Below, piece by piece: positions 22,604 to 45,261 of a DNA stretch of 64,000 nt (positions are counted from its first letter, which is position 1; each line of letters begins with the position of its first letter). Position numbers and translations under genes: made by a program. The DNA is from Pseudomonadota bacterium (GTDB lineage: Bacteria; Pseudomonadota; Gammaproteobacteria; Pseudomonadales; UBA5518). The stretch spans positions 1,251-65,250 of the forward strand of contig CAUJIL010000121.1 in the NCBI GenBank assembly GCA_963204845.1. The letters are read 5' to 3'. The notes below the pieces were generated by a model. It was not told the origin of the DNA, ran no database searches, and saw nothing but the letters and a program-made list of their open reading frames with translations.

Positions 22604-22638
22604 GCGCGGACAGGTATCCGTGACGAGGGGGCTGCGGA

Positions 22639-22654: not shown

Positions 22655-22705
22655 CTCCGAAGCCGCCGGATTATAGCGATGACCCCGCGGGTCGCCAAAT
22701 GCGTC

Positions 22706-25700: not shown

Positions 25701-26578
25701 GTCTCCACCTTCATCAGGATGTGCACCGCCTCGCGGTGATACGCGAATTCGCGCGTGTCCGGGTCCGGGAAGAAACGGCCCGCGTCGTGGCCGCGGATCA
25801 CCGCCGCGTTGTCGGCATACGCGCTCAGCACGTCGGGATCCGCCGCGACGCGATGCGTGTTGCGGATCATCGCGAACAGGCTGTGCGGCTGCGGTTCGCC
25901 GTCGATGCGCCACGAGGCGTTGAATATCTTGTGGCGACAGTGCTCGCTGTTGGCCTGCGCGAACATCATCAGCTCGACATCGGTGGGATTGCGTCCCAGC
26001 GCGACGAAACTCTCGCACAGGTAGTCGATCTCGTCGGCGGCGAGCGCGAAGCCGAACTCCGTGTTCGCGCGCTCGAGCGCGGCGCGGCCGCCACCGAGGA
26101 TATCGACCACGCGCAACGGGCGCGCCGGCTCGTGCGCGAACAGACGTTCGGCCTCGGCGAGACTGCCGAACACGGTCTCGACCATGCGGTCGTGCAGCGG
26201 CTCGGCGATGCGCGCGCGCAGCACCGAATCCGCGCCCGCGCCGTTCACCCGATACGCGATGCCACGCTCGATGCGCCGGATGCACGCGAGTCCGCAGTTG
26301 CGTGCGATGTCGGTCGCCTTGCTCGACCACGGCGATTGCGTGCCCGGACGCGGCACGACCAGATACAGCTCACCGTCGGCGTCGTCCGCGTGCTCCGGGC
26401 TGTCGAGCAGTTCACGCAGCCGCTGCAGATCCGTCGCCGCGAGTTCACCCGTGGTCTCGACGAAATACATGTGACGCGCCGTGAGCGCGGCGATGCGCGC
26501 ATCGTGCGCGCGCACTTGCGCGAGCAGCCGTTCGAGCCGGAATGGCGAAAGCGCCGAGGCGCCGGCGAGTGTCAGCAT
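22706..26578 (-). CDS. purL: phosphoribosylformylglycinamidine synthase (single-chain)
   Basis: 1290 aa with full-length large-PurL architecture, including a C-terminal glutaminase domain (…GVCNGCQMM…). Confidence 0.97.
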
Positions 26579-26787
26579 GCGAGCTCCCGATGAGGTGCCG
26601 GAGGGCGCCGCGCGACCGCGGCGAGACGCGGATTCTAACGTACGGGGCGATAGCGCTCACTGACTTCGCGGGTCCGCGAACGCGCTTGCCCCCATGAAAT
26701 ACCGGTAATTTTTTGCGCTCGCACGGGCTAGGCAGACGCGCCTCACGCTCTAGAATCGCCCTGCCAGTTACAGCAAGAGTGTGACCG

Positions 26788-29516: not shown

Positions 29517-29583
29517 GGTAGCGACCGCGCGAGCGAGGCAAGCAGCGGCGCTCGATTGCGGCGCCTCACCTCTACCTCGACAA

Positions 29584-30066
29584 TCATCCGTCGAAAGCGA
29601 TCTCCAGCTTGTGGCCGAATCCCTGCCGGTTGTCGATCACGCGCGCCCAGCTCGGTGTCAGGCAATAGAACCCGCTGCCCAGCAACCGATCCGCTATCGA
29701 CCGCTCCTGCGCGCTGGCAGGCCGGTCGCGCATCGCCGCGATCTGCGGGAAACGCTCCAGATAGCACTGCTCCGCCCGCCGCCGCTGCGCCCCCTCGAGC
29801 AACGCTGCCGTAGCGGCGAGTTGCACGCCTTCGATGTCGAGCCAGTCGAGCGCCTGCCCGCTGACCGTGACCGCCACCTGGGGGCTTTCGGCGATATGCC
29901 GGCTGTGCAGTGTTCTGGTATCGGAAACGAAGTACAGCCGACAGTCCCGATCGCAGGCGTAGAACAGACTGCAGGCCCACGACCGGCCGCCACTGCAGGT
30001 GGCCAGGGTCAGCGTGGTCCGGGCCTGCAGATAGGCGCGCAGCGGCGCCAGCTCATCGCGGGCCAA
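29584..30066 (-). CDS. PNPOx-like FMN-binding protein (YhbP/UPF0306-like)
   Basis: The pattern …TLTLATCSGGRSWACSLFYA…LYFVSD…T.H…PQVAVTVSGQ…GVQ…RFP…IDN..GFG.K resembles E. coli YhbP from memory. TTG start at 30066 overlaps the ubiX 3' end by 14 nt. Confidence 0.55.
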   Translation of the reverse strand: MARDELAPLRAYLQARTTLTLATCSGGRSWACSLFYACDRDCRLYFVSDTRTLHSRHIAESPQVAVTVSGQALDWLDIEGVQLAATAALLEGAQRRRAEQCYLERFPQIAAMRDRPASAQERSIADRLLGSGFYCLTPSWARVIDNRQGFGHKLEIAFDG

Positions 30067-30628
30067 CCCTGCCTTCCCATCGTTTCAATGCCCCGGTGTC
30101 GATATCGAACAGGTCGAGAATGCGGCCCACGGCGTGGACCACCAGATCGTCGATGGTCCGGGGCTGGATGTAGAAGGCGGGCACGGGCGGCGCGATGATC
30201 GCCCCCAGCTGGGCCGCCTCGTACAGCAGCTTGCAATGACCGACATGGAGCGGCGATTCCCTCGGCATCAGCACCAGCCGGCGGCGCTCTTTCAACGTGA
30301 CGTCGGCGGCGCGCACCAGCAGGCTGTCGGCGTAGGAGTTGACGATGGCCGACAGCGTCTTCATCGAACAGGGCGCCACCACCATGCCATCGACCTTGAA
30401 CGAGCCGCTGGAAATGCTGGCCGCCTGGTTGCGGTAGTTGTGCACCTCGTCGGCCAGTCCCTCCACATAGGCTGCGCTGACATCGGTCTCTATCTCGATG
30501 TTGAGCCTGGCGTAAGGACTCATCACCAGGTGGGTCTCCACCCCCTCGACCGATTTCAGCAGTTCCAGCAGGCGTACGCCGTAAACGACCCCGCTGGATC
30601 CGCTCATGCCGACGATCAACCGCTTCAT
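30053..30628 (-). CDS. ubiX: flavin prenyltransferase UbiX
   Basis: MKRLIVGMSGSSGVVYGVRLLE… and …VVAPCSMKTLSAI… flavoprotein motifs. ATG verified at 30628, 31 nt downstream of the UbiD-family gene. Confidence 0.9.
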   Translation of the reverse strand: MKRLIVGMSGSSGVVYGVRLLELLKSVEGVETHLVMSPYARLNIEIETDVSAAYVEGLADEVHNYRNQAASISSGSFKVDGMVVAPCSMKTLSAIVNSYADSLLVRAADVTLKERRRLVLMPRESPLHVGHCKLLYEAAQLGAIIAPPVPAFYIQPRTIDDLVVHAVGRILDLFDIDTGALKRWEGRVGPR

Positions 30629-30659
30629 TGCCTCACCCGCACTTTGTGACTGCCGGTCC

Positions 30660-32027
30660 TCACAGCCCCTCGAAATCGAACCGCGACAGGTCCACCTGTG
30701 CCATGGTGGCACGCGCGAACTTGGCCGGTCTCGGCAGCGGAACCGTTGCATCCACGCCAAGACGCGTCCACTTGTCGTTGGCCACCATCGGGTTGAGGCG
30801 GTGGCCAATGGTTTCGGGAATCAGCAGCAGGTCGGTTTCGTAGCGGCAACGGGTGGCCACGGCCCAGTCCACATCGGTGGGGCTGTAGATATCGACGTCG
30901 GTGTCCACCACCGTCACGGTCTTCACAAAGGCCAGCGAAACAAAAGCCGCCATGATGGCGTTGCGCTGGCTGCCCTCGTGTTTCTTGTCTATCTGCACCA
31001 CCAGATGGTAGGGCACACTGCCATCGGCGAAGTGCACCGCCGTCACCTCCGGCACCAGGCCATGAATCTTGGCAAAGGCTCCGGCCGACGCACTGATACC
31101 GTAGGCGTTGCCGACTTCCTTGCCGGACAGGATCGAGTGGAACACGGGGTTGCGGCGCCGGGTGATCGCGGTCACTTCCATCACCCAGCGATCGTCACGC
31201 TCGGCGTAGTAGCCGGTGACCTCGGCGTAGGGGCCTTCGGGCTCGCGCACCCGGGGCAGGATCTTCCCTTCGATGACGAACTGGGCGTTGGCGATCGCCT
31301 CCACCGCCACCGTTTGCGCCTCGATCAGGGTCACCGGCTCACCCCACATCTGGCTGGCGATGCCCAACTCATCCATCTCGATGGGAGCGGCCGAGGCGGG
31401 CGAGGCGGCGGCCACCGTCAGCGGGAAGTCGATGCCGTTGTTGACGGTGATCTCCAGGGGCACGCCCTTCGCCTCGGCACGCCTGTAATAGTCCATCAGG
31501 TGACCGAGTTCCTCCAGCAACAGGGTGAGCCGGTTCGTGCCGGTCACCATCATCCGGTGGATCGACAGGTTGCGCACCCCGGTGTCGGGATCCTTGGCGA
31601 TTACCACGCTGGAAGTGAGGTAACGTGCCCCGTCGCCTTCGGCGTGGTGGGGGATGGGCAGCGTGCCGAGATCGGGCGTAAGCTCCACCACCTCGTTGGC
31701 CGGTCCCTGTTTCACGATCACCGGTTCACCGGGCGATTGCTGCCAGGCGCGAATCTCGTCGCTCAGCACGAATGGCAGCCGGGCGCTGTCGGTCTGCAGC
31801 AGCTTCGCCAGCAGGTCGCGGTTCCAGTAGAGGCCGATCAGCACCGGGTAGTCGTAACCCTTGACCCGTTCGAACAGCAGCGCCTTGCCGCCCTCGAAGC
31901 GCTTGGCTATGCCGGCGAGTTCGAACACCGGGTCCACCTCGCTCTTCACCCGGATCAGGTGGTCGTGCTGTTCGAGGAACTCGATATAGCGCTGTATATC
32001 GGTCAGGTTGCGCTTTGCCAGATCCAT
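30660..32027 (-). CDS. UbiD-family (prFMN-dependent) decarboxylase, substrate unknown
   Basis: 455 aa with UbiD-family patterns (…LLFERVKGY…, …EGPYAEVTGYY…, …VVDTDVDI…). ATG verified at 32027. Confidence 0.85.
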   Translation of the reverse strand: MDLAKRNLTDIQRYIEFLEQHDHLIRVKSEVDPVFELAGIAKRFEGGKALLFERVKGYDYPVLIGLYWNRDLLAKLLQTDSARLPFVLSDEIRAWQQSPGEPVIVKQGPANEVVELTPDLGTLPIPHHAEGDGARYLTSSVVIAKDPDTGVRNLSIHRMMVTGTNRLTLLLEELGHLMDYYRRAEAKGVPLEITVNNGIDFPLTVAAASPASAAPIEMDELGIASQMWGEPVTLIEAQTVAVEAIANAQFVIEGKILPRVREPEGPYAEVTGYYAERDDRWVMEVTAITRRRNPVFHSILSGKEVGNAYGISASAGAFAKIHGLVPEVTAVHFADGSVPYHLVVQIDKKHEGSQRNAIMAAFVSLAFVKTVTVVDTDVDIYSPTDVDWAVATRCRYETDLLLIPETIGHRLNPMVANDKWTRLGVDATVPLPRPAKFARATMAQVDLSRFDFEGL

Positions 32028-32080
32028 CGCTGCCGCCTCGCATTCATCGTGGTTGTATTCGACCCCTGCCCCGGATCGGC

Positions 32081-32107
32081 AATAAATCGGGCCGGCAAGC
32101 CGGCCCG
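32081..32107 (-). terminator. candidate intrinsic terminator/attenuator between the aldehyde dehydrogenase and UbiD genes
   Basis: GC stem CGGGCCGGC/GCCGGCCCG at 32088..32107, followed on the minus strand by ATTTATT. Confidence 0.35.
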
Positions 32108-32192
32108 GCCGCAATGCTCCGGGATCGTCGCAAGCGAGCACAGTGTGTCCGAGGGGACCTGCGGTCGATGGTGGAATGATCCGTCCGCCAAG

Positions 32193-33632
32193 TCAAAGGC
32201 CCGGGTTATGGATAGTGATCCACTTCCATTCGGTCAGAATGTCCAGATCCGCCTCGGTACCCTCGCGCCCGTAACCACTCAGTCCCTGGCCTCCGAAGGG
32301 CGGGTTGGGCTCGTCCTGGATGGTGGCGCGGTTGATATGCACCGCCCCCGACTCCGCCCTTTCCGCAATCGCCAACGCCCGCTGAATATCCCGGGTCCAG
32401 AGGGAGAAGCTCAGTCCATACTCGGAGTCGTTGGCGCGCTGCAGTGCTTCCTCGGCGGTGCGGAAGGTGTAGAGACTGGTGACCGGGCCGAAGGTCTCTT
32501 CGCGACAAACCGCCATTGCCTCGGTCACGCCACGTAACACTGTAGGCCGGCAACGGTTGCCGACCCAATCTCCACCGGCCAGGACCTCGGCCCCCTTGCT
32601 GATGGCGTCCTCGATATGGCGACGCACCCGCTCGCGCTGGCGCGCACTGATGATCGGCCCAACGGCGGTGCTCAAATCCCGAAGATCACCCATCCCCATC
32701 TGCTCGGTGGCGGCGAGAAACTTGCGGGTGAACTCCTCGGCGATGCCCTCCTGCAGATAGATGCGGCTGGCAGCCATACAGGCCTGGCCCTGGAAAAAAA
32801 AGATGCTCATGGCAGCCGTGTTCGCGGCAGCGTCGATATCGGCGTCCTCGAACACCACCAACGGACTCTTGCCTCCCAACTCCTGGGTGGTGGGTTTGAG
32901 GTCCCGAGCCGCCAACTGCGCCACGTGCCTGCCCACCCGGGGCGATCCGCAGAAACTGATGCTCTTTACCAGAGGGTGGGTAGTAAGGGAGTCGCCGATC
33001 TCGAACGGATTGCCCGTCACCACGTTGAACAGCCCCGCGGGAACCCCCGCCTCATGCAGGGTTTGGGCAAAACGCAGCGACACCTGGGACGAAAACTCCG
33101 ACGGCAGTTGCACCACCGCATTGCCGCAGGCAATTGGCATCACCCCCTGCTTGGTCACCTTGAGCAGCGGCACGTTGAACGGCGAAATCGCCGCCACAAC
33201 GCCTACCGGCTGCCGGATCGCCATGCTGTAGACCTCGGGGTTATCCGACGGAATCACCTCACCGCGGATATGCCGAGGCACGCCAGCCGCCGCCCGCAGA
33301 GCGCTGATGCAGTAGTCCACCTCGAACTGGGCCTTGAAGACAGGCGACCCCACTTCATCCACCAGAATGTCCAGGTACTCCTGGCGATCACGCTCAACGA
33401 GTTCGGCGGCGCGCATCATCCACACTTCCCGCTCGCGGGCCAGCCGGTGGCGATGGGCCTCGAAGGCCGCCCTGGCAACCCGTATGGCCGCATCCATATC
33501 CTCCACCGTCGCTTCGGCCACACGGCTGTAGAGCGAATCATCGAGGGGATTCAGATCGTCGAAATAGCGGCCCGACGAGGGCGCCACCCATTCGCCACCA
33601 ATCCACAAATCCGACTCCTTCACTTGTGGCAT
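32193..33632 (-). CDS. NAD(P)+-dependent aldehyde dehydrogenase
   Basis: ALDH signatures ELGGKSP and FFFQGQACMAASR (catalytic Cys). AGGAGA RBS 7 nt before the ATG at 33632. Confidence 0.9.
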   Translation of the reverse strand: MPQVKESDLWIGGEWVAPSSGRYFDDLNPLDDSLYSRVAEATVEDMDAAIRVARAAFEAHRHRLAREREVWMMRAAELVERDRQEYLDILVDEVGSPVFKAQFEVDYCISALRAAAGVPRHIRGEVIPSDNPEVYSMAIRQPVGVVAAISPFNVPLLKVTKQGVMPIACGNAVVQLPSEFSSQVSLRFAQTLHEAGVPAGLFNVVTGNPFEIGDSLTTHPLVKSISFCGSPRVGRHVAQLAARDLKPTTQELGGKSPLVVFEDADIDAAANTAAMSIFFFQGQACMAASRIYLQEGIAEEFTRKFLAATEQMGMGDLRDLSTAVGPIISARQRERVRRHIEDAISKGAEVLAGGDWVGNRCRPTVLRGVTEAMAVCREETFGPVTSLYTFRTAEEALQRANDSEYGLSFSLWTRDIQRALAIAERAESGAVHINRATIQDEPNPPFGGQGLSGYGREGTEADLDILTEWKWITIHNPGL

Positions 33633-33651
33633 TGATCATTCTCCTGAGAGC

Positions 33652-33677
33652 ATGCAAACCGGCCAACCGGTTTGCAT
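33652..33677. promoter_or_regulatory. perfect 11-bp inverted repeat ATGCAAACCGG-N4-CCGGTTTGCAT (operator or hairpin)
   Basis: Read directly from the sequence. It lies about 20 nt upstream of the aldehyde dehydrogenase ATG, downstream of the TonB-receptor stop, and is followed by a T-run on the plus strand only. Confidence 0.5.
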
Positions 33678-33752
33678 TTTTATGGATCGATTTCCTCTGA
33701 CATTGTCCTCGCACCCGCAGCATGGGTTGAGCAGCGAGGGCAACCTTCCATC

Positions 33753-36137
33753 CTAGAAGTTGTACTTCACGGACAGGCTCCATTCCTTGCCTCTGGAATA
33801 GATGCCCTCGGCATAACCCGGCGCGCTGTTGAAGGACGACCTGCCCGTAATCAGATACAGCTCATCGGTCAAGTTGCGCCCGGCCGCGACCAACTCCCAT
33901 GCATCACTTGCACTCGTCATGGTAATCGACGCATTTAACAGATTGTAAGAATCCGACAACAGCAGGGGATCGTTGGTCGCGTCCTGATACGTCTCATCGG
34001 AATAGATCCAGTCCAATCTCGGTTCAACCGTCCACTCACCCCAGGTGGTGGTATAGGAAATGCCCAGATTGGTGGACCATTCTGGCACCTGCGCAAACGC
34101 CGAATCCTTGGTAATGGGGGTTGTGTTGAGGATGTCGTCACTCAGTTCCTCGTACTCCGCGTCGAGATACCCCACGCCCAGTTGAATCAGCCAGGACGAC
34201 TCGGGAATATACGTCGCCTCGATCTCGAACCCCTTGAGGGTCGCTTCACCGGCGTTCTTCGTAACCGGCGCAAAGCCAAACAGTGCCACAAGCTGCATGT
34301 CCTGGTAATCCGAATAAAACGCTGCCGCATTGACCCGCAGCGAGTTGTCCAGCCAGGAAGACTTCAGACCGAACTCGATCGCCTCCACTTCCTCCGGATC
34401 AAAACTCGTCACAGCCGGGGCGCCCGCCTGGTAGCGCTGGACGAACCCGCCACTCTTGAAACCCTGGGAATAGGTTGCATACACCATAACGTCATCGCTC
34501 AGATTCCACGCTCCATTGACCATCACATTGGTCTTCTGGAACTCTTCCTCTACCCATTCCTGGGGCACCAGCGAGTCGCCGGGCAGAAAAAGTAGACCAG
34601 GGAAAGGCCCCCCCGGGCAGGCCGCGGGTCCCTCGGCACCCGTGGGACAATCGGCGTACCGGTTACGCGTACCAGGACCGCCCCCACCGAAATATGGCCC
34701 ACCGTCCGGAGGAACTATCGAATACGGCAGGAACTGCTTCTGCTCGTCCGTGTAGCGAATGCCTGCCGTAATACTGAAATCAGAAGTCATATCCCACGTG
34801 GATTTAGCGAACACGTCCCAGTTATCGTTTTCCACCTCGCCGCCACTGAATATGCTGCCCACCTGAATGGGAAGACCATCTAGCGGATTCGGGTTCTCTG
34901 CATTCTCCTCGAAGTAAAAAAGACCCAGAATCCATTTGACCTGGCTATCGTACGCCACACCCGAGAACTGAATTTCCTGACTGAACTGTTCGTGGTAAAA
35001 CTCGTCCTCCGTATTGATCAGCACATGCGGCGTTGCATCACCATCCCGAGCGGAAAAACTTTCGAGATCCCGATATCCGGTGATCGATTTGACCGTGAGC
35101 TTCTCCGAAACATCCCACTCTGCGGTCAGGTGCACCCCCCAATAGTCCAGATCGGACTCCACCTTCGATGTGCCGCCACTCTTGTGCTCACCGAGAATAG
35201 TCGTTTCATTCAAGCAGTTGGGATCACCGTTAGTCGGCGATGGAATGGGAGCGCCCGCGGGCGCTCCGGTATAAACACTACAGCTAGGGATCTGGTAGCG
35301 GTTTGCCAGTGTCGGCCACACCGCGCTGTCATTGACTCCAAGAGAAACCGCAGGCGCCCCCTGCTCATTCTCCTTCGTATAATCTGCCGTCAGTAAAACC
35401 GTCAGTTGGTCCGACGCCTGCCACAGCAGGGCAACTCGCCCGGCAAGGGAGTCGTCGTCACCCAACTCCACGCCGTCGTAAACCCGCTCTACATAACCGT
35501 CGCGCTTCGAACTCGCGAGGCTGATTTTGCTAAACAAATTCTCGCTGAGCGGCACATTGAAATTGAGCACCGCATTGCGCATGTCGTCGCTGCCCAGCTT
35601 GACTTCGGCATTACCGGAAAACTCGTCCGTCGGCTTCTTGGAATTCAGCAATACCGCCCCGCCGATGGTGTTACGCCCGAACAGGGTTCCCTGCGGTCCC
35701 CTGAGGACTTCCACGCTTTCCATCTCCAGAAAACTCGTGGAAGCGCCGATCGACCGGGCGTAGTAGACGCCATCCACGTAAAGACCAACACCTGGATCGG
35801 TTACCGCCGTAAAATCAGTTTGTCCGATTCCACGGATAAAAATCTGTGACGACGCACTGCTCCCAGACGCCGGCGCATACGCATCAAAGGTCAGGTTGGG
35901 CGTAATGTCCCCCAACTGGTCAGTCGAGGAGATTTGCCGCGCCTTGAGGTCATTCGAGGTAAACGCCGATACGGCCAGTGGCGCATCCTGGAGACTTTCC
36001 TCCCGCTTTCGCGCTGTAACCACGATCTCTTCCAACGCAAACCCAGACGCCGGCGGCTGCGCCAGTGCATGGCAGGATGATGAAACGGCAAGGCAAAGAG
36101 CAAGAAGTCTGGAGGGACTCGACGTATTCACAGGCAC
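33753..36137 (-). CDS. TonB-dependent outer-membrane receptor
   Basis: Signal peptide, plug-domain motif …LEEIVVTARKREESLQDAPLAVS…, a long beta-barrel and terminal …SVKYNF. GTG start. Confidence 0.9.
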   Translation of the reverse strand: MPVNTSSPSRLLALCLAVSSSCHALAQPPASGFALEEIVVTARKREESLQDAPLAVSAFTSNDLKARQISSTDQLGDITPNLTFDAYAPASGSSASSQIFIRGIGQTDFTAVTDPGVGLYVDGVYYARSIGASTSFLEMESVEVLRGPQGTLFGRNTIGGAVLLNSKKPTDEFSGNAEVKLGSDDMRNAVLNFNVPLSENLFSKISLASSKRDGYVERVYDGVELGDDDSLAGRVALLWQASDQLTVLLTADYTKENEQGAPAVSLGVNDSAVWPTLANRYQIPSCSVYTGAPAGAPIPSPTNGDPNCLNETTILGEHKSGGTSKVESDLDYWGVHLTAEWDVSEKLTVKSITGYRDLESFSARDGDATPHVLINTEDEFYHEQFSQEIQFSGVAYDSQVKWILGLFYFEENAENPNPLDGLPIQVGSIFSGGEVENDNWDVFAKSTWDMTSDFSITAGIRYTDEQKQFLPYSIVPPDGGPYFGGGGPGTRNRYADCPTGAEGPAACPGGPFPGLLFLPGDSLVPQEWVEEEFQKTNVMVNGAWNLSDDVMVYATYSQGFKSGGFVQRYQAGAPAVTSFDPEEVEAIEFGLKSSWLDNSLRVNAAAFYSDYQDMQLVALFGFAPVTKNAGEATLKGFEIEATYIPESSWLIQLGVGYLDAEYEELSDDILNTTPITKDSAFAQVPEWSTNLGISYTTTWGEWTVEPRLDWIYSDETYQDATNDPLLLSDSYNLLNASITMTSASDAWELVAAGRNLTDELYLITGRSSFNSAPGYAEGIYSRGKEWSLSVKYNF

Positions 36138-36221
36138 CTCACTTTACTAGAAATATTGGCTTTTCCGTCGCACCGGCAGTCGAAATGCCAGTTCACCACG
36201 GACATATATAATTCGATATTT

Positions 36222-36440
36222 TCAAGACACTCGGGATGGAGCCTTCTTCAAGTACATGAACAGTCCCATGAAGCCGCTCATGAAACCGCTCAGCAAACCG
36301 CTGATGCCATTATTGACGGCATTTTCCATGAGCGATTCCGGAAACGGGACCAGGAAATAGTTCACGGAAAAGGACAACACCAGGGCTATCGCCGCTCCGA
36401 CACCCCCGGCTTTTAGTGCATCACGCTGATTGGCCGCCAT
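36222..36440 (-). CDS. small hydrophobic protein (72 aa, about 2 TM), unknown function
   Basis: ATG at 36440 preceded by a GGAG. Sequence MAANQRDALKAGGVGAAIALVLSFSVNYFLVPF…GISGLLSGFMSGFMGLFMYL…. The longer track ORF would overlap the upstream gene. Confidence 0.4.
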   Translation of the reverse strand: MAANQRDALKAGGVGAAIALVLSFSVNYFLVPFPESLMENAVNNGISGLLSGFMSGFMGLFMYLKKAPSRVS

Positions 36441-36481
36441 CTCATTTGCTCCTCTGGAAAAAGAGAAGATTATCTGAAGGA

Positions 36482-38047
36482 TTACTTGGCGATACTTTCC
36501 CGGAGCAACTTGCGATTTGCCTTGCCGGTATTTCCCCGGGGCAACGATTCCAGGAAACGGTACTGCCTTGGTTTCTTGTAACTCGACAACTCGGAACGTT
36601 CGACATGATTCCTCAATTCCTGCTCGGAAATTTCTTCTGTTGCGACGATGAATGCAGTAATTCGCTCGCCCCACTCCTCGTCGGGCACACCGATCACCAG
36701 ACACTCGCTGACGGCAGGATGCTGTAACAGAACTTCCTCCACCTGCGTCGGCAAAACATTGATCCCGCCAGAAATGATCATGTCGTCTACGCGACCACGC
36801 AGATACACGTAACCTTCTTCATCCAACATCCCGACATCACCTGAACGCCACCAGCCATTCTCGAACACCTTGGCTGTCAGTTCGGCCCGCCGCCAGAAGC
36901 TACTGGCGACCGATGGTCCCCTGATGATGATTTCACCATCGGTCCCGGGAGGAAGTTGCTGATCTACACGTCCACCAGGCTCGATCACCCTGAGTTCTAC
37001 GCCCTCACCTGGACGACCCACGCTTTCCAGTCGATTCAAATCACGGTAATCCTCAGGCAACATCACCGTGCAACCAGCCCACGAGCCGGTCTCGGTGGTT
37101 CCATAGGTATTTATTATCGAAGGAGATATTTTTTCACGAAGTCGCATCAGGGTAGACCGATCCATCACCTCACCTGCGTAGCCAATTCGCCGCAATGAGG
37201 ATAGATCGGTCGAGTCGTTTACCTCACGCAATACCGCCCGCCACATGGTAGGCACCAGGAAGCAGACGGACACTTGTTCCGCGGCGATGGTCGCCAGGGC
37301 TTTCGCAGGTGACCACTCGGGCAAATAAACTATCTTCGACCCGCCATACAGAAACGGCAGCGTGCAGTTGTACCAGCCAATGAACGCCGTGGTAAAAACG
37401 TTCAGGCCGCACGCATTCTCGTCGGCTACCATATACCTGACACCGTATCGACCGCTGGCCACCAGGGTACGGTGCGTGTGCATTACCCCCTTGGGGACAC
37501 CGGTTGTACCGGAGGAGAGCGCGATGACTGCCGTATCGTCCATCGCCGCAGGCTCAATCTCAAGATCCGGTTGGTAGGCCTCGAGATCACGCGGAATCGT
37601 CACATCATTCTCTGCACGCATTTCCACAGCGGGAGTAATGCCGGAGATCGATCGGACGTAAGCGCGAATCCCAGTCTCAGCCTGTTTTATCGAGTCGAGC
37701 CGGTTCGAAAAGGCACCATCGTAAACGAGCAAGGACGGCGCGAGTTCCTCGAGAACCTTCCGCAACAGCGCATCTGATTCCCTGACATGCAGCGCTACCG
37801 GGATGGCGCCGAGTTCGATGGCGCCGAAGAGCGCTATCACATGAGAGGTGGAAGGTGGCATGAGCAGCGCCACCCTATCCCCTTTGCGAACCCCATGTGC
37901 ATGCAGCAACTTCGCCATCCGCACAACACACTCGCGGAGTTCGCCATAGCTGTAACGAGCCACGTCATCGACCACTGCGTCCTTGTCGGGCCATTTTTCG
38001 GCCGCGCGTCGAATTAGATCCCGCAACGTCAAATAATCGCGCAACAT
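36482..38047 (-). CDS. AMP-dependent aromatic/acyl acid--CoA ligase
   Basis: Adenylate-forming motifs LSSGTTGVPKGV, YGTTE, SGDVG and …LPRGNTGKANRK. Confidence 0.9.
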   Translation of the reverse strand: MLRDYLTLRDLIRRAAEKWPDKDAVVDDVARYSYGELRECVVRMAKLLHAHGVRKGDRVALLMPPSTSHVIALFGAIELGAIPVALHVRESDALLRKVLEELAPSLLVYDGAFSNRLDSIKQAETGIRAYVRSISGITPAVEMRAENDVTIPRDLEAYQPDLEIEPAAMDDTAVIALSSGTTGVPKGVMHTHRTLVASGRYGVRYMVADENACGLNVFTTAFIGWYNCTLPFLYGGSKIVYLPEWSPAKALATIAAEQVSVCFLVPTMWRAVLREVNDSTDLSSLRRIGYAGEVMDRSTLMRLREKISPSIINTYGTTETGSWAGCTVMLPEDYRDLNRLESVGRPGEGVELRVIEPGGRVDQQLPPGTDGEIIIRGPSVASSFWRRAELTAKVFENGWWRSGDVGMLDEEGYVYLRGRVDDMIISGGINVLPTQVEEVLLQHPAVSECLVIGVPDEEWGERITAFIVATEEISEQELRNHVERSELSSYKKPRQYRFLESLPRGNTGKANRKLLRESIAK

Positions 38048-38110
38048 GAACCGGCACTCTTATGCTTGCTATCCATTCCCGAGAGAGACCGACCCGGATC
38101 TCCCGTTGGC

Positions 38111-38935
38111 CTAGATATCCTCGCGTGCGACCTGATAACTCTGAAGGCCCGGCTTGTATTCACGCTTCTTGAATGATTGAAGCGCGGTCTTGATCCAGTC
38201 GTCATTGGTCAGGCGCGACAACTCGTAAAGTTTCGCGATTTCGTAATCGATGGCGTCGGGAAAGTTCATATCGCGAGTGCGCTCGTACACCTGCTTCGTG
38301 AAGTCGAGCACGATGCGCCCCTTGCGCAGCAAGTTATCGACCACCTTCTGCGTCGCTTCATCCAAATCTGCCAGGGGTACCGACTTCGATGCCCAACCCA
38401 ACGTCACCGCCTCCTTGCCATCGAAGGTGTCCGCGGTCAGCGAGTAATACAGTGCCTGCTTGCGGGACGGCATATTGGCCTGAGTGGCCCACGTAGTGCC
38501 TCCGCCGGGAAAGATGCCGAAATTGACTTCGGACAACCCCCAGGTCGACTCCTCCGCCACGATTGCTATGTCACACAGGCCTGCCACCAGCATGCCACCC
38601 CCGAAACACCAGCCATTAACCTTGGCAATGGTTACCGCAGGGAAGGCCTTGAGACGACGCATCCACTCGAACGAGTACCCGACCCCTTCCTTGAAACGGG
38701 CAGGCTCGTCCCAATTGTCAAAGAAGCATTTTTCCAGATCCATGCCCCCGATAAACGAGTCTCCAGCTCCGGTCAGCACCACCACCTTGACGTTCGCGGC
38801 CTCCACCTCCACGAGAGCCTGGCACATCTCGGCGTGCAGGGCAGGACTCATGCAGTTCTTCTTCTCTGGACGATTCAACGTAATCGTGGCGCTACCACCA
38901 TGGATTTCGACGATGATGTTTTGGTAATTGCTCAT
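38111..38935 (-). CDS. crotonase-family hydroxycinnamoyl-CoA hydratase/lyase-like enzyme (HCHL/Ech-like)
   Basis: From memory it resembles Pseudomonas HCHL along its whole length (…LNRPEKKN.MSP…, VLTGAG…GMDL, VNGWCFGGG, GLSEVNFGIFPGG, …KPGLQSY…). ATG verified at 38935. Confidence 0.75.
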   Translation of the reverse strand: MSNYQNIIVEIHGGSATITLNRPEKKNCMSPALHAEMCQALVEVEAANVKVVVLTGAGDSFIGGMDLEKCFFDNWDEPARFKEGVGYSFEWMRRLKAFPAVTIAKVNGWCFGGGMLVAGLCDIAIVAEESTWGLSEVNFGIFPGGGTTWATQANMPSRKQALYYSLTADTFDGKEAVTLGWASKSVPLADLDEATQKVVDNLLRKGRIVLDFTKQVYERTRDMNFPDAIDYEIAKLYELSRLTNDDWIKTALQSFKKREYKPGLQSYQVAREDI

Positions 38936-39229
38936 ATGGATTCCCTCACGCCAGCCGTGTTCCTTGAAGTGAAACGACAGGGGCAAAGTAGTTCCGCGCT
39001 CATCGGAAAGGCAATAAACATCGCGAAAACTATGTACACATTACGAACCGCCATGCGCAAATTCCCGTATACCACTCACACGGGAACACACGGCCCGAGT
39101 TGATTTGCCAACCGCAGAGGACCCAAGGGGCAAGGCCGAATGTCGAATTGGAGCGTGACCGCTAGCGCCAGGAAGCCATTTCACGCGTTGGCAGGGATGA
39201 TCGCGGCGAATGCGATGTGCGTGCCGCGG

Positions 39230-39679
39230 TTACAGAATCTCGTAGGCATCAATGAATACTTCAGATTTTCTTCGGCCGCCCTTGGCTATTGCCAGGATCC
39301 GATTCAACCACTCATAGCGACCCGCGGGCGCCTCGAAAAAAAGCACCTCGCGAAAATAGTACTCCGAGGCGTCGACATCCTCTCCCGCCATGATCCGCTC
39401 GAGCACGCGTGTCGTCGCGTGCCGCATACCGTGGCCCTTCAACTGGATCGTTACGTCGTCATCCGTCCTCAGCGTAACGCGAACATCAAGTTCGGCCACA
39501 CCGTCCTGACGAATTAACTGAAAGTCCGATCCGCCCGCCTGCAACACTCCCGAAAGCCGCGCTCCATTGAAGCTGCCACCCGTAACCGGGATAAACCACC
39601 TTTTTCCAAGCGGACCATCGATCACTTGCGGCGCATCGACATTCGCCTTCAATACAAACAGTGCTTTCACCTCGATCAT
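39230..39679 (-). CDS. DUF3237 (UPF0311) family protein
   Basis: 149 aa with …GPLGKRWFIPVTGGSFNG.RL.G.VL.GG.D.Q…DG…L.V…L.TDD…, typical of DUF3237 beta-barrel proteins. Confidence 0.6.
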   Translation of the reverse strand: MIEVKALFVLKANVDAPQVIDGPLGKRWFIPVTGGSFNGARLSGVLQAGGSDFQLIRQDGVAELDVRVTLRTDDDVTIQLKGHGMRHATTRVLERIMAGEDVDASEYYFREVLFFEAPAGRYEWLNRILAIAKGGRRKSEVFIDAYEIL

Positions 39680-40034
39680 TTTTTATCTCCTGTTTATTGC
39701 TGCGGTGCTCGGCAGCATAGATTTCATGCCCCGCCAGGTGGCAACACCTGTAGAACAAGCTGAAGAGGAATAGATTATCCCGTGATTACAACCTTCCCGG
39801 ACGATGAAGCACAAAACGATGCAACCTCTTAGCCCGGCGGCAGATCCAGGATTGTACCTACGGCTTGCGAAGAGCGCGTGATCGGCTTATCCGAAATCCG
39901 CACGATGCCATAACGGTGACGTTTCGCATTCTGTACAAAGAATTTCGCAGACAGCATTACGATAATTTACCAACACGATAAGCTCTGCCCACCCCGCCGA
40001 CGTCGCAACATACCTTGCCGACGTCGCCGCAGCC

Positions 40035-41795
40035 ATGGAGAACTCTATGAACCAGGCCTACACCCCACCGTTGGACGAAATTCTTTTCCTTCTGGACAAC
40101 GTCATCCATTGGAGCAATTTGTTAGATCTGCCTCCGTACACCGAACTGGACCGGGAGACGTTCACCGCCATTCTGAGTGAAGCAGCCAAATTCGCAACGC
40201 GAGAACTAAGTCCCATTAACGAAATTGGTGACGACGAGGGCTGCCAACTTCTTGATGGCCGGGTACGCCCTCCCAGCGCCTTCCTGCGGGCATTCAGGAA
40301 ATACGTGACCGAAGGCTGGTGCAGCATGGAAATCCCGGAGGAATTTGGCGGCCAGCGCCTCCCTCTTCTGCTGGGCGCGGTCATATCGGAAATGAACAAT
40401 GGCGCCTGCATAGCCTTCAGCATGCTGCCCTGCATGCTGCGGTCCGCCGCCCACCTGTTGATAGCCCATGCCGACCCGGACCTTCGCGACTGCGTCGTCC
40501 CGCATCTTGCCAGCGGAAACTATAGCGCCACGATCGTGATCACCGAGCCCCAGGCGGGATCGGACGTTAGTCGCATAAACTGCCGGGCCGTCGAACAAAC
40601 CGACGGCAGTTTCAGCATTACCGGCTCGAAGATATTTATTTCCTACGGTGATCACAACTGGACAGATCAGATTCTGCACATGGTACTCGCACGCACCGAA
40701 AATGCTGGAGGCGACTCATCGGGACTCAGCCTGTTCATGGTGCCCAAGTTGAACCTGAGCAGTGGTGCTCCAAACGGGGTCACCGTTCTCGGCATCGAGA
40801 AAAAAATGGGGCTCCGGGGTTCTCCCACCTGCACCCTGGAATTCAAGGGCGCGATTGGCTACCTGATTGGGGAGCAAAACAAGGGCTTGAATTGTCTCTT
40901 CACCATGATGAACACCATGAGGCTTGAAGTCGCCTCGCAAAGCACCGGGATAGCGAGCGCCTGTCTTCAAAAGGCTTGCACATACGCTGGCTTCCGCATT
41001 CAGGGCGGAGCAGGCGAGGAGCCAATCCAGCAGCATGCCGACATACGCAGAAACCTGGCTGGAATGCATGCCCAAACCGTGTCCATTCGTGCCCTCACCT
41101 ACGAAACCGCCATCAACCTGGACAAGGCGAAACACGGCACGGATGAACTCGGGAGACGGCAGGATCTCGCATTGGCCGAGTTTCTCCTGCCCGTATGCAA
41201 GGCCTGGGGTTCAGACACGGCATTCTGGGTAGCCAACCAGGCACTGCAGGTGTTTGGCGGACATGGCTACATAAGGGAGCAGGGAATCGAGCAATATGTC
41301 AGGGATTCTCGAGCGTTGTCCATCTATGAGGGAACCAACGGCATCCAGGCTCAGGATCTGGTAATACGTAAATTATTCAAACAAGACGCCGCTGGCTATC
41401 ACCAACTGGTCTCGCGCATGAAGCAGACGATTGCCGACGCAACCAAGACCGGCACAGCGAGTGAGCTGATTTCCCATGTCGAATCGACGCTGGAAGGATA
41501 CCGTCGCTGTACCGCCTCGCTTCTGGAAAACACCCGGCGGTCGATACGCTTTGCCCAGGCTGTCGCTACACCGTATCTCGAACTTACCGGATTGGTCGCC
41601 GGGGCGTGGATGTGGCTGCGCATCGCAACCACCCCTGGCACGAATGCCGCAATACGGAATGAGTACGCCAATCTGTCGATATTCTATATGCGTTACTTGT
41701 TGCCAAAAACCCAACTGCTGGAGGCCCAGGTTTACGCTGGAGCAGAACTGATCGACAACTGCTTCGGAGGTGCGGCACCAGACAAATCCAGTTGA
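40035..41795 (+). CDS. long acyl-CoA dehydrogenase (with N- and C-terminal extension domains)
   Basis: ACAD core (…TEPQAGSD…, …GSKIFIS…, …YEGTNGIQA.DL…) plus a C-terminal extension of about 150 aa. The ATG at 40047 has the better RBS (GGAGAA) and may be the true start. Confidence 0.85.
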   Translation: MENSMNQAYTPPLDEILFLLDNVIHWSNLLDLPPYTELDRETFTAILSEAAKFATRELSPINEIGDDEGCQLLDGRVRPPSAFLRAFRKYVTEGWCSMEIPEEFGGQRLPLLLGAVISEMNNGACIAFSMLPCMLRSAAHLLIAHADPDLRDCVVPHLASGNYSATIVITEPQAGSDVSRINCRAVEQTDGSFSITGSKIFISYGDHNWTDQILHMVLARTENAGGDSSGLSLFMVPKLNLSSGAPNGVTVLGIEKKMGLRGSPTCTLEFKGAIGYLIGEQNKGLNCLFTMMNTMRLEVASQSTGIASACLQKACTYAGFRIQGGAGEEPIQQHADIRRNLAGMHAQTVSIRALTYETAINLDKAKHGTDELGRRQDLALAEFLLPVCKAWGSDTAFWVANQALQVFGGHGYIREQGIEQYVRDSRALSIYEGTNGIQAQDLVIRKLFKQDAAGYHQLVSRMKQTIADATKTGTASELISHVESTLEGYRRCTASLLENTRRSIRFAQAVATPYLELTGLVAGAWMWLRIATTPGTNAAIRNEYANLSIFYMRYLLPKTQLLEAQVYAGAELIDNCFGGAAPDKSS

Positions 41796-41808
41796 CACCA
41801 GAACACTC

Positions 41809-42261
41809 ATGAATATGCCGTTCACGGTTGTGATCCGAGTTCGCTATGGCGAATGTGATCAGCAGGGCGTGGTATTCAATGCCCGCTACGGCGATTACAT
41901 CAACACCGCCGCGCTCGAGTTCCTACGTGTGACCCTTGGAGGTCACAATATTCTCGAAGCATTCGACCTCGACAGCCAAACGGTCAGAATGACGACCGAA
42001 TGGCGGTCCTCCGTGAAATACGATGACATCGTCGACATCACCGTAGAGACCGTTCGTGTGGGAAACTCGTCCTACACTTTGGAAATGCGGTTCCGAGAAC
42101 ACTTTTCCCAACGGGCGGTGGCGTCGTCGGAAATCGTCTGTGTGATGGTGGACAGAACATCCCTGCAGAAAAGGCAGGTACCGGAGGAAATCAGGAAAGG
42201 CCTGCTGCGGAATGCAAGTGGAGCGATCATCGACTACTCCGGCTTGGGATCTATGCACTGA
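41809..42261 (+). CDS. 4HBT/YbgC-type acyl-CoA thioesterase
   Basis: …VRYGECDQQGVVFNARYGDY… hotdog-fold thioesterase signature. ATG verified at 41809. Confidence 0.8.
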   Translation: MNMPFTVVIRVRYGECDQQGVVFNARYGDYINTAALEFLRVTLGGHNILEAFDLDSQTVRMTTEWRSSVKYDDIVDITVETVRVGNSSYTLEMRFREHFSQRAVASSEIVCVMVDRTSLQKRQVPEEIRKGLLRNASGAIIDYSGLGSMH

Positions 42262-42274
42262 ATTGGCGCAACGC

Positions 42275-43261
42275 TTACCAAGCGGGCTTCGATTTCAGGG
42301 TTTGCGCTGGATAACATCCATATTTCTGTTGGTAGTATTTTGCCCAAAGCCCGGGATTACTGATGCCATATCGCCACATGATCTGGCTGACATTGGATCT
42401 TTTTCCGGCATCGGCCAACTCCCGATGAATATGATGGAGACGCCGGGAACGAATAAATTCAGAAGGCGACATCCCCAGATGTTTTTTAAACCCATTCTGC
42501 AGGGTCCTCTCGGTAACCCCCGCCTGTCGGCTTATTTCAGACAAACTTATATTCGTCTTTATATTCTGTTCGATGTACTCCGTAGCGATGCGCACACAAC
42601 GCGGGGTCGCAACCCTGCCAGCACCGGTATCGAGGATATTTGAATAATTATGGCGCTGGCAGCGCAGCAGCGTATAGGCAACCATTTCCGCATGGCCACG
42701 ATGGATGGCAGCATCCCGATCGAACAGTGGATTCGGCATTCCGTAGAATCGACATAGAAAACGCATCGTCTCGATCCAGGAACGCCTGGCGCTCTCATCC
42801 GACAATGCAAACTCGAACCTCAGACGGCCATCCGGATCACATCCGGAAACTGTTCTCAATTTTTCCTCGACCAGTCGGCGTTCGAGCTTGAGAACGAAAT
42901 GGGCGCATCCCGGGCTCAGTGACACCGAGGTTGGCAACAGCGGATCGATGACAAGAGTATCATTTGTGGCGGTTTCCACGCAGCTGTTGCCATTCCAGGT
43001 TGCACTGCAGCCGTCCAGGGTCGTCTGAACCAGAATGAAACTGTCGTTGAACTCTGGCTCTATAGTGACCTCTTTCGAAAAACTCAGATAAGCCAACGAC
43101 ATGGGCCCAAGATTCAATCCATTGAACTCGGCACCCACCTCATGATCTGCGGAAAGGGCTCTACAGCGATTCTCCCAGAACACCTGCCCACCGACATCGA
43201 CTGTCCTGGCAATATCGCCATTTTTCAGAATATTATACTGTGTAAGTGGGTGGTATTTCAT
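42275..43261 (-). CDS. AraC-family transcriptional regulator
   Basis: C-terminal double HTH (…ISLSEISRQAGVTERTLQNGFKKHLGMSPSEFIRSRRL…, …SNPGLWAKYYQQKYGCYP…). GGGAGG RBS. Confidence 0.85.
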   Translation of the reverse strand: MKYHPLTQYNILKNGDIARTVDVGGQVFWENRCRALSADHEVGAEFNGLNLGPMSLAYLSFSKEVTIEPEFNDSFILVQTTLDGCSATWNGNSCVETATNDTLVIDPLLPTSVSLSPGCAHFVLKLERRLVEEKLRTVSGCDPDGRLRFEFALSDESARRSWIETMRFLCRFYGMPNPLFDRDAAIHRGHAEMVAYTLLRCQRHNYSNILDTGAGRVATPRCVRIATEYIEQNIKTNISLSEISRQAGVTERTLQNGFKKHLGMSPSEFIRSRRLHHIHRELADAGKRSNVSQIMWRYGISNPGLWAKYYQQKYGCYPAQTLKSKPAW

Positions 43262-43443
43262 CCATATCCTCCCGACTGAGCGGTTGTATCCGGAAGGTAT
43301 TCTTTTATTCGAAGCAACTGTCGCGCGTAAGTCGCCAGAGCCGCCGATTCGGCAGAATCTGTCCCGCGGAAACGCTCGAGAAGGTCGAATACATCACGCA
43401 CGGAACGTTCTTCGCGTCCACGACGTTCCCGTTTTCCGGACAT
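43258..43443 (-). CDS. hypothetical small protein (61 aa) translationally coupled to the AraC gene
   Basis: The ATG at 43443 opens a frame whose TGA overlaps the AraC ATG (ATGA at 43258-43261). There is no recognisable family, and it may not be a gene. Confidence 0.25.
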   Translation of the reverse strand: MSGKRERRGREERSVRDVFDLLERFRGTDSAESAALATYARQLLRIKEYLPDTTAQSGGYG

Positions 43444-43612
43444 CGGTTCAGGACCGATCGGCTTGTTTCTCGAGTCGCACGACACTGCCGACTGTGCCAC
43501 TGAAGAACCACTTCCGAGACTACTACAGCGCGCCGCGTACTACCAGTCGATGAAATCCTTTTGATACAACACGGTACACTTCACCTTGGGCGCTCGCTGC
43601 GACCATGCCCGG

Positions 43613-45190: not shown

Positions 45191-45261
45191 CGCGGTCGTT
45201 TTCTCCGTGCCGGAAAAAGGCGCGGGGCCCGTGAGGCCCCGCACACAGATCGATCCTGAAC

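Follow-up and report, generated by a model that had tools for sequence, protein, structure and literature searches.

The region between an O-methyltransferase gene (OMT) and guaA in a 64,000-nucleotide stretch of the Pseudomonadota bacterium assembly GCA_963204845.1 (contig CAUJIL010000121.1; the whole stretch is hereafter called the window) is a composite of two accessory blocks. Block A is a mobile cassette of four genes, which encode an aldehyde dehydrogenase (ALDH), a UbiD-family decarboxylase, the flavin prenyltransferase UbiX and a PNPOx/YhbP-like protein. Block B, of ~55% G+C content (GC) and apparently imported more recently, encodes among others a TonB-dependent receptor (TBDR), a CoA ligase, an enzyme resembling p-hydroxycinnamoyl-CoA hydratase/lyase (HCHL) and an acyl-CoA dehydrogenase (ACAD). 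The best explanation of the region as a whole, which I hold with moderate confidence, is that the two blocks together would remove the three-carbon (C3) side chain of an aromatic acid that is not one of the classical substrates of such pathways.

Composition, boundaries and history of the region

The region is set apart by its composition and falls into two tiers. Outside it, GC averages 0.697 over 49 one-kb windows (standard deviation 0.014, minimum 0.668), whereas it is 0.640 in block A (z = -3.9 relative to these flank windows) and 0.551 in block B (z = -10.1), with a sharp step at ~33.65 kb in a sliding window. GC at third codon positions is 0.86–0.94 in purL, mltF, tadA, OMT, guaA and guaB, 0.77–0.84 in the PNPOx, UbiX, UbiD and ALDH genes, and 0.55–0.73 across the genes from TBDR to AraC. 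Tetranucleotide usage correlates with that of the flanks at 0.69 for block A and 0.63 for block B, compared with at least 0.91 for size-matched flank chunks and 0.98 for the left flank against the right. A first-pass annotation of this DNA had proposed a two-tier drop in GC and an imported, compositionally foreign segment; GC z-scores and tetranucleotide usage bear out both, and uniform composition is ruled out, although the ~77% GC it gave for the flanks was too high (~70% as computed). Every gene family that it had named is found in its place and on its strand, with OMT and guaA as neighbours of the region, and vanAB, pobA and ring-cleavage genes, which it had noted as missing, are absent from the entire window. 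Its single island, however, is not borne out by the comparison with other genomes.

The nearest relative found, reached through protein-cluster members of the UbiD, is the metagenome-assembled genome (MAG) GCA_009612775.1 ('Pseudomonadales bacterium', contig WBZY01000024.1, locus L180), whose flanks are 93–95% identical to the window at the nucleotide level. The gene order in this sister is msrA-guaB-guaA, two open reading frames (ORFs) without a family, then UbiD-UbiX-PNPOx-OMT-tadA-mltF-purL. Blastn homology ends at the guaA stop (43612) and restarts at 32206, so that it takes in the last 14 nt of the ALDH gene. The OMT-guaA interval of the sister therefore differs from that of the window in part only: the 11.4 kb running from ALDH to AraC (32207–43611) are missing, while UbiD-UbiX-PNPOx (29593–32206) occupies the same site in both genomes at 96.4% identity. 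The 14-nt tail of the ALDH gene argues that the sister lost this gene rather than never having had it. In place of the missing segment the sister carries an insert of 2.25 kb (7544–9817) with two ORFs, of 359 and 298 aa, neither of which matches a Pfam or NCBIfam family. The insert is bracketed by a perfect 21-bp direct repeat, GATCGAGTGGGAGTGACGATT, which combines the final 16 nt of guaA with 5 further nt and is present as a single copy in the window (equivalent 43612–43628). The repeat indicates that the 3' end of guaA behaves as an insertion hotspot, and the insert points to site-specific insertion there by an element without a recognisable integrase.

The four genes of block A recur as a discrete unit, at 93–95% nucleotide identity by blastn, in three further loci. 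In the first of these (L177), homology stops 14 nt past the PNPOx stop codon and unrelated genes follow. The second (L178, 5037–8359, 93% identity) is a metagenomic contig in which homology sets in 14 nt before the ALDH start; directly upstream of the cassette it carries genes for an ISL3-family transposase and a HepT/nucleotidyltransferase toxin-antitoxin pair, as well as a fragment of a reverse-transcriptase gene. The third (L179) retains the junction between cassette and TBDR seen in the window, at 95% identity. ALDH-UbiD-UbiX-PNPOx is a separately mobile four-gene cassette, and its contexts, together with the partial presence of the unit in the sister, lead to the rejection of a single island acquired in one step. 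The edge of the cassette at 33646 coincides with the GC step. Six nucleotides outside it, between the TBDR stop and the ALDH start, lies a perfect palindrome, ATGCAAACCGG-CCAA-CCGGTTTGCAT, which is followed by a run of T on the plus strand and is not a classical terminator on the coding (minus) strand. The closest protein relatives of block B are found in Halioglobus-type and other marine gammaproteobacterial MAGs of 45–56% GC.

The order guaB-guaA-(0–5 kb)-tadA-mltF-purL is ancestral in Gammaproteobacteria, as judged from 80 loci of relatives with guaA at no more than 75% identity (among the matches listed). In several of them tadA directly adjoins guaA, and in none of these 80 listed loci does the guaA-tadA interval hold genes of the region. 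These observations support the view that the region sits in a variable slot. The window itself contains no tRNA gene, integrase or flanking repeats; signals of mobility are found only outside it, in the form of the ISL3 transposase and reverse transcriptase of L178 and the 21-bp repeat of the sister. In tblastn searches of plasmids nothing closer came up than canonical HCHL, with identities up to 42.5%, and distant UbiDs, with identities up to 37%, so the module is not on known plasmids.

Specificity residues of the lyase and the decarboxylase

The first-pass annotation had allowed that the hydratase might prove closest to non-aromatic fatty-acid enzymes. This is not the case, the crotonase being specifically HCHL-like: it narrowly passes the NCBIfam equivalog model NF006588 (293.9 bits, cut-off 276; 142.5 bits with ECH_1), while no model for an ordinary enoyl-CoA hydratase gives it more than 115 bits. 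With canonical HCHL (6l3o, 2j5i) it shares 41% identity, the catalytic Glu143 and the oxyanion-hole residues Met70 and Gly120 (HCHL numbering). In HCHL, Tyr75 and Tyr239 bind the 4-hydroxyl or phenolate group of the substrate, and ternary-complex work on the P. fluorescens enzyme reportedly showed this binding of the phenolate by the two tyrosines. The window protein has Cys in place of Tyr75 and Ile in place of Tyr239. The former residue, Cys70 in the numbering of the window protein, gives its name to a Cys70 clade of 119 homologues, which are 72–81% identical in gammaproteobacterial MAGs, 57–65% in Immundisolibacter and 51–56% in actinobacteria, Chloroflexota and Bacillota. Glu143 and Met70 are each present in 119/119 and Cys at the Tyr75 position in 113/119, while the Tyr239 position is occupied by Met, Ile, Gln or Leu. 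Canonical 6l3o and 6p5u, by contrast, keep Tyr75, and 6l3o also Tyr239. PDB searches revealed no solved structure inside the clade; the best match of an actinobacterial member is 6p5u, a canonical enzyme with the tyrosine.

The UbiD, whose UbiX partner is encoded 31 nt downstream, comprises the UbiD_N, UbiD and UbiD_C domains. Its best PDB matches are AnInD, the indole-3-carboxylate decarboxylase of Arthrobacter nicotianae (7p9q, 1.5e-102), and the 2,5-furandicarboxylate decarboxylase PtHmfF (6h6v, 1.3e-96), followed far behind by AroY (1e-47), VdcC (2e-37) and Fdc1 (1e-25); it is also far from E. coli UbiD and phthaloyl-CoA decarboxylase. Membership of the AroY and Fdc1 groups was rejected on these scores, and membership of VdcC on a score of 249.7 against a cut-off of 650 for NF041204. 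The comparison with VdcC, AroY and Fdc1 proposed in the first-pass annotation thus places the protein outside all three and in the branch of AnInD and PtHmfF/CbHmfF, whose catalytic Arg and Glu it keeps; the equivalents of R155 and E266, the Arg and Glu of the E/D-R-E network, are found in all 120 UbiD homologues. Two positions bear on specificity within this branch: Asp169 of AnInD is proposed to hydrogen-bond the indole N-H (PMC8988006), and a His of HmfF is described as key to furan specificity (PMC7976604). At the AnInD-D169 position the window UbiD, 42% identical overall to AnInD, has Glu, as do 120/120 homologues, so that an acidic residue is kept, though it is Glu and not Asp; HmfF has Leu. 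At the PtHmfF-H296 position the window protein and 119/120 homologues have Val, as in AnInD. The label '2,5-furandicarboxylate decarboxylase 1' (HmfF) given by JGI was rejected because the furan-specificity His is missing. The protein belongs to a clade of its own, of at least 120 protein clusters at 68–81% identity, which is widespread in marine Gammaproteobacteria. A lyase without the phenolate-binding tyrosines and a UbiD that is InD-like at two specificity positions suggest that the substrate is probably not a classical 4-hydroxycinnamate.

This bears on the classical hydroxycinnamate pathway, in which ferulate, p-coumarate or caffeate would be converted through vanillin, 4-hydroxybenzaldehyde or protocatechualdehyde to the corresponding benzoate, and the latter to guaiacol, phenol or catechol by non-oxidative decarboxylation. 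It would agree with the pass of the lyase at the NF006588 cut-off and with its conserved Glu143, with an ALDH close to vanillin dehydrogenase (9ihb), with a ligase that matches feruloyl-CoA synthetase (8wev) and with an ACAD, a thioesterase and an outer-membrane protein that mirror the Acinetobacter hca cluster. I nevertheless regard it as unlikely. The phenolate-binding tyrosines are lost, in the window protein and across its clade, from a lyase that is only 41% identical to canonical HCHL; the UbiD lies in the InD/HmfF branch, far from AroY, VdcC and Fdc1; no VdcD-like small subunit is present; and the regulator is of the AraC type, whereas hca, fer and cou clusters typically have one of the MarR type. 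The formation of guaiacol, phenol or catechol from ferulate, coumarate or caffeate, which the first-pass annotation had suggested, is therefore not the best reading of the region. One further element favours phenolic substrates. The PDB matches of the DUF3237 protein encoded at the head of the minus-strand array are 4pux, 3g7g and 3c5o, the last of which is RPA1785; by locus-tag order its gene neighbours RPA1786 of R. palustris, the p-coumaroyl-CoA hydratase gene (PMC12366328), and this adjacency leaves room for such substrates.

The ligase is generic by sequence, its best PDB matches being FadD13, feruloyl-CoA synthetase 8wev and 4-chlorobenzoate-CoA ligase (1e-64 to 1e-57). The ACAD matches 8png and 6ijc (1e-107), and the thioesterase scores 52.5 bits with NCBIfam TIGR00051, below the cut-off. 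The nearest solved structures of the ALDH are salicylaldehyde, vanillin and benzaldehyde dehydrogenases (1e-102 to 3e-91). That the genes form an accessory cluster for aliphatic or fatty-acid-type beta-oxidation with no aromatic role is scarcely credible, even though in NCBIfam the ligase best matches a subfamily of long-chain-fatty-acid-CoA ligases, with a score below the cut-off, and the ACAD is nearest to the FadE-type structures of P. aeruginosa 8png and 8pns, and to 6ijc: the crotonase scores far higher as an HCHL than as an ordinary enoyl-CoA hydratase, genes for a 3-hydroxyacyl-CoA dehydrogenase and a thiolase are missing, the closest structures to the ALDH are those of aromatic aldehyde dehydrogenases, and fatty-acid oxidation has no use for a UbiD/UbiX pair.

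Linkage of the two blocks and the proposed pathway

The minus-strand genes from DUF3237 to PNPOx are co-directional, separated by gaps of 31–294 nt or overlapping, and may form a single operon across both blocks. Block B has no aldehyde dehydrogenase of its own and is placed co-directionally just upstream of the cassette ALDH. A link between the blocks is supported by their independent co-localisation elsewhere: locus L083, on an unrelated 226-kb JGI contig of 45% GC, holds orthologues of eight of the genes within 20 kb and in another order (identities: TBDR 49%, ACAD 46%, AraC 50%, HCHL-like 80%, ligase 59%, UbiX 76%, UbiD 78%, ALDH 73%). In more than 20 related loci, the HCHL-like gene followed by the ligase gene forms an invariant core, often accompanied by a divergent AraC gene, a small membrane protein, an ACAD and a TBDR. 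A homologue (69% identity) of the 73-aa membrane protein of the window, which matches no Pfam or NCBIfam family, follows the ligase in L091; TBDR orthologues (46–49% identity) adjoin the HCHL-like and ligase genes in L083 and L086; and AraC orthologues (46–50%) are divergent from HCHL-like genes in L083, L091 and L092. The more distant, Immundisolibacter-type locus L095 has the order HCHL-like-ACAD-ligase-4HBT thioesterase, and UbiD genes of other subfamilies abut an HCHL-like gene in L088, L098, L103 and L106.

These contexts also bear on the possibility that the blocks are functionally unrelated and lie side by side only through the guaA-tadA hotspot, the cassette handling an aldehyde or acid of its own and the aldehyde from block B being oxidised elsewhere. 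Such an accident would fit the different GC and distribution of the blocks, the palindrome at their junction, the occurrence of UbiD-UbiX-PNPOx without block B in the sister, the sister's own 2.25-kb insert with its 21-bp repeat at the guaA 3' end, an interval that varies from 0 to 5 kb across Gammaproteobacteria (among the matches listed), and the fact that UbiD orthologues are mostly found without HCHL-like genes, and vice versa. I consider it distinctly unlikely in view of L083, where orthologues from both blocks have come together independently, of the A-B junction conserved in L179, of the four more distant loci in which a UbiD gene abuts an HCHL-like gene, and of the position of block B, without an ALDH, directly ahead of the ALDH of the cassette.

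According to the preferred explanation, that of C3 side-chain removal by the two blocks together, an aryl- or heteroaryl-propionate or -acrylate would cross the outer membrane through the TBDR and be converted by the ligase to its CoA thioester, whose side chain, if saturated, would be desaturated by the ACAD. The HCHL-like enzyme would then hydrate the acrylyl thioester and, using its conserved Glu, cleave the product by a retro-aldol reaction into acetyl-CoA and an aryl aldehyde. The cassette ALDH would oxidise the aldehyde, and the UbiD would decarboxylate the resulting acid to the bare arene with prenylated FMN (prFMN) supplied by UbiX and probably handled by the PNPOx-like protein, the net effect being removal of the whole C3 side chain. 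The thioesterase would plausibly free CoA that is trapped in off-pathway esters, the DUF3237 protein may act as a decarboxylase on a precursor or side product, and the AraC regulator would sense the substrate or its CoA ester. The sequence of CoA activation, cleavage, oxidation and decarboxylation that the first-pass annotation had outlined is thus chemically coherent, and its gene set recurs in L083; what lacks support is ferulate or coumarate as the substrate.

The known CoA-dependent, non-beta-oxidative hydroxycinnamate clusters are hcaABCD(E) of Acinetobacter baylyi, fcs-ech-vdh(-acd-aat) of Pseudomonas and couAB of Rhodopseudomonas palustris, and the architecture of the region is a variant of these. 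It has in common with them a CoA ligase, a crotonase-family hydratase/lyase and an aromatic aldehyde dehydrogenase, as well as an accompanying ACAD, thioesterase and outer-membrane uptake protein; with R. palustris couAB it also shares, by locus-tag order, a DUF3237 gene (RPA1785, PDB 3c5o) beside the hydratase gene. It differs from them in its lyase, which has diverged from canonical HCHL and lost both tyrosines, in having an AraC instead of a MarR regulator and a TBDR instead of a porin, and in the PNPOx-like partner of UbiX. Moreover, the benzoate would meet a prFMN decarboxylase here, whereas vanAB, pobA or pca genes take its place in the known clusters. Literature searches yielded no paper on this gene combination, on a UbiD linked to HCHL or on an indole-3-carboxylate catabolic cluster.

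Several observations weigh against the proposed pathway. The lyase does pass the equivalog cut-off for HCHL, and the RPA1785 gene does adjoin a p-coumaroyl-CoA hydratase gene. The UbiD is equally distant (42% identity) from AnInD and HmfF. The blocks differ in GC and history, and the 120-nt spacer between them contains a strong palindrome, which makes their co-transcription a matter of inference. Neither an inner-membrane transporter nor a pathway for the decarboxylated product is encoded in the window. Most HCHL-like loci have no UbiD or ALDH nearby (for example L086, L090, L091 and L092), and in many cases a UbiD orthologue of 80% identity is a solitary gene surrounded by housekeeping genes (L175, L176). 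Since most HCHL-like loci lack a UbiD, the link between the two blocks, while real, is facultative.

The solitary UbiD genes of L175 (10001–11446) and L176 (10001–11368), which come from marine gammaproteobacteria, are 80–81% identical to that of the window and lie without a UbiX gene amid lon, recA-recX and mutS; the conservation of such solitary orthologues suggests a common substrate. A TPP-dependent 2-oxoacid decarboxylase-type gene (TPP, thiamine pyrophosphate) accompanies the UbiD orthologue in L083 (17604–19271) and in another aromatic context, L172 (5353–7026). In L083 it lies between ALDH and UbiD and is IpdC-like, scoring 352 bits with TIGR03393, below the cut-off of 946. Its occurrence in two unrelated loci suggests that different aldehyde-forming enzymes can feed the ALDH-UbiD pair.

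As to the substrate, the leading specific guess is a ring that bears an N-H or is otherwise non-phenolic, as in indole-3-propionate or indole-3-acrylate. The hints in this direction are the AnInD-like residues of the UbiD, the lost tyrosines of the lyase, the IpdC-like gene of L083, a carbon-nitrogen hydrolase beside the core in L091, and AndR as the best, sub-threshold, NCBIfam model of the AraC regulator; each is weak and none decisive.

A different substrate class is raised by the DUF3237 protein, the only characterised members of this family (PhcF and PhcG of Sphingobium sp. SYK-6 and PinX of Novosphingobium) being cofactor-less decarboxylases of lignin-derived dimers. The region could then be a lignin-dimer or lignan module for phenylcoumaran- or pinoresinol-type acids, in which the TBDR would import the dimer, the DUF3237 protein would carry out a ring-opening decarboxylation, ligase and lyase would remove the acrylate side chain, and the UbiD would replace LigW on an isophthalate resembling 5-carboxyvanillate. 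Substrates that do not fit through porins would call for a TBDR, SnoaL/NTF2-like genes are found with the ACAD of L083 and L091, and an Amidohydro_2 (LigW-family) gene lies near the UbiD and HCHL-like genes of L106. The module is also favoured by the occurrence of a 79% identical UbiD orthologue in Marinobacterium mangrovicola (L173, SMFU01000011.1, 1–17074) amid LigXa_C-type and VanA_C-type Rieske oxygenases; TRAP/TAXI transporters and a QRPTase-like gene complete this lignin-biphenyl-like catabolic neighbourhood. I nonetheless judge a lignin-dimer module very unlikely. The likeness to PhcF, PhcG and PinX is at the level of the Pfam family and of an aromatic-catabolic neighbourhood, and no other phenylcoumaran or pinoresinol pathway gene is found in the window, which likewise lacks genes for O-demethylases, ring cleavage and lignostilbene dioxygenases; of the loci examined, none but the window has DUF3237 next to the HCHL-like gene; and the HmfF residue tied to dicarboxylate/furan specificity is not conserved. 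Literature searches yielded nothing on a UbiD acting on 5-carboxyvanillate.

The features of the region are collected in Table 1. The remaining genes of the window are housekeeping genes: an AcrB-type pump, der, bamB, hisS, ispG, rlmN, iscS, suhB, secDF, purL, guaBA and msrA. Scans of the window revealed no Rfam element above chance and, except for the junction palindrome, no promoter or terminator above chance; this includes the divergent intergenic region, where no consensus promoter rose above chance. Very long ORFs antisense to purL (20234–26593, plus strand) and guaA (43586–45259, plus strand) are the usual artefacts of high GC and not genes.

Table 1. Features of the accessory region between OMT and guaA (positions in the window)
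Feature	Position	Strand	Basis
Block A (ALDH-UbiD-UbiX-PNPOx-like)	29570..33646	-	blastn edges and GC 0.640
PNPOx/YhbP-like FMN-binding protein, 160 aa	29584..30066	-	Pfam PNPOx_N
UbiX flavin prenyltransferase, 191 aa	30053..30628	-	NCBIfam NF004685, 255 bits (cut-off 188)
UbiD-family prFMN decarboxylase, 455 aa, InD/HmfF branch	30660..32027	-	three UbiD Pfam domains
NAD(P)-dependent aromatic-type aldehyde dehydrogenase, 479 aa	32193..33632	-	Pfam Aldedh, 494 bits
Segment missing in sister GCA_009612775.1, ALDH through AraC, 11.4 kb	32207..43611		blastn
Block B	33647..43611		GC 0.551
Palindrome, 11-bp stem	33652..33677		junction of blocks A and B
TonB-dependent outer-membrane receptor (TBDR), 794 aa	33753..36137	-	plug and beta-barrel domains
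Hydrophobic small membrane protein, 73 aa	36222..36443	-	no family match
AMP-forming acyl/aryl-CoA ligase, 521 aa	36482..38047	-	AMP-binding domains
HCHL-like enoyl-CoA hydratase/lyase, 274 aa, Cys70 clade	38111..38935	-	NF006588
DUF3237 protein, 149 aa, first gene of minus-strand array	39230..39679	-	Pfam DUF3237, 123.7 bits
Divergent intergenic region between DUF3237 array and ACAD, presumed regulatory	39680..40034		gene layout
Long FadE/DmdC-type acyl-CoA dehydrogenase (ACAD), 586 aa	40035..41795	+	Acyl-CoA_dh N, M, 1 and C domains
4HBT/YbgC-type acyl-CoA thioesterase, likely start 41809	41770..42261	+	Pfam 4HBT_2
AraC-family regulator, AraC_binding_2 sensor domain, 328 aa	42275..43261	-	domain match

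The PNPOx/YhbP-like partner of UbiX and wider meaning

The last gene of the cassette encodes a protein that exceeds the Pfam cut-off for PNPOx_N (35.6 bits, cut-off 28.1) and falls below that of NCBIfam YhbP (70.8 bits, cut-off 176). Its start overlaps the UbiX stop by 14 nt, and no copy of the cassette has UbiD-UbiX without this gene. It is probably coupled to UbiX in translation, and its proposed role is to assist in the delivery or oxidative maturation of prFMN. The two best plasmid homologues of the protein (33% identity) also sit in UbiD/UbiX clusters. On Neorhizobium pNCHU2750a (L184, 4950–5378) the order is ubiD-ubiX-membrane protein-PNPOx-like, with idi nearby. On pAZKH of Azoarcus sp. 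KH32C (L186, 17968–18432) the gene lies in an anaerobic phenol (phenylphosphate carboxylase) cluster that contains pps, ppcBDAG, a UbiD-family gene and UbiX, and overlaps the stop of a sigma-54 regulator gene. The linkage to UbiD/UbiX thus recurs in alpha-, beta- and gammaproteobacteria, and by this linkage the protein is a candidate accessory factor of UbiD/UbiX, namely a prFMN maturase or chaperone. A word-indexed search for homologues of the protein brought up only 3 close relatives. A sequence comparison with PDB chains, PhdC included, gave no match, and an AlphaFold2 model built from 4 near-identical sequences had a pLDDT (predicted local distance difference test) of 38.

LpdD, PhdC and YclD are known examples of small accessory proteins that bind prFMN or mature it by oxidation (PMC10865409, PMC13040415). 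Like the candidate, they are encoded with UbiD/UbiX, in phdABC of Mycolicibacterium fortuitum, vdcBCD with YclD of Bacilli and lpdB/lpdD of Lactobacillus plantarum (PMC13040415, PMC10865409); in the window the arrangement is UbiD-UbiX-X, with a small flavin-binding-type gene directly after UbiX and overlapping it. PhdC is described as a distant HpaC-like flavin reductase, whereas the window protein is PNPOx_N/YhbP-like. PhdC-like sequences have been reported only from Actinomycetota, and the corresponding factor of E. coli is unidentified (PMC10865409, PMC13040415). The PNPOx/YhbP-like family may therefore be an unrecognised prFMN accessory factor. In E. coli MG1655 (L182, NC_000913.3 3299472–3303367), the gene annotated as 'putative FMN binding protein', yhbP, is ~0.85 kb away from the O2-independent ubiquinone biosynthesis genes ubiT-ubiU-ubiV, with yhbQ and yhbS in between; given this position, the window protein might be a clue to the UbiD-activating factor of E. 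coli.

A bolder conjecture, improbable as a whole, would combine these elements. The clades of the Cys70 lyase and of the UbiD with Glu169 and Val296 would define an undescribed C3-stripping route for non-phenolic or N-heteroaromatic acids, leading, for example, from indole-3-propionate or -acrylate through indole-3-carboxaldehyde and indole-3-carboxylate to indole, and the PNPOx/YhbP-like protein would be the proteobacterial prFMN maturase or chaperone, a counterpart of PhdC.

The locus is a clean example of pathway assembly, in which a mobile cassette and an imported block are stacked at a hotspot at the guaA 3' end. Its PNPOx/YhbP-like protein is a testable candidate for the missing proteobacterial factor of prFMN maturation or chaperoning, and in practice the use of (de)carboxylases in biocatalysis is held back by poor activation of UbiD enzymes. 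The label 'p-hydroxycinnamoyl-CoA hydratase/lyase' is carried by more than 100 protein clusters from Gammaproteobacteria, Immundisolibacter, Actinobacteria and Chloroflexota that lack the residues for phenolic recognition, and there is likewise no support for the names 'furandicarboxylate decarboxylase' or 'UbiD' given to a very widespread marine UbiD clade. Establishing the activity of one member per clade would re-annotate thousands of genes, and could reveal how marine bacteria strip the side chains from aromatic or indolic acids.

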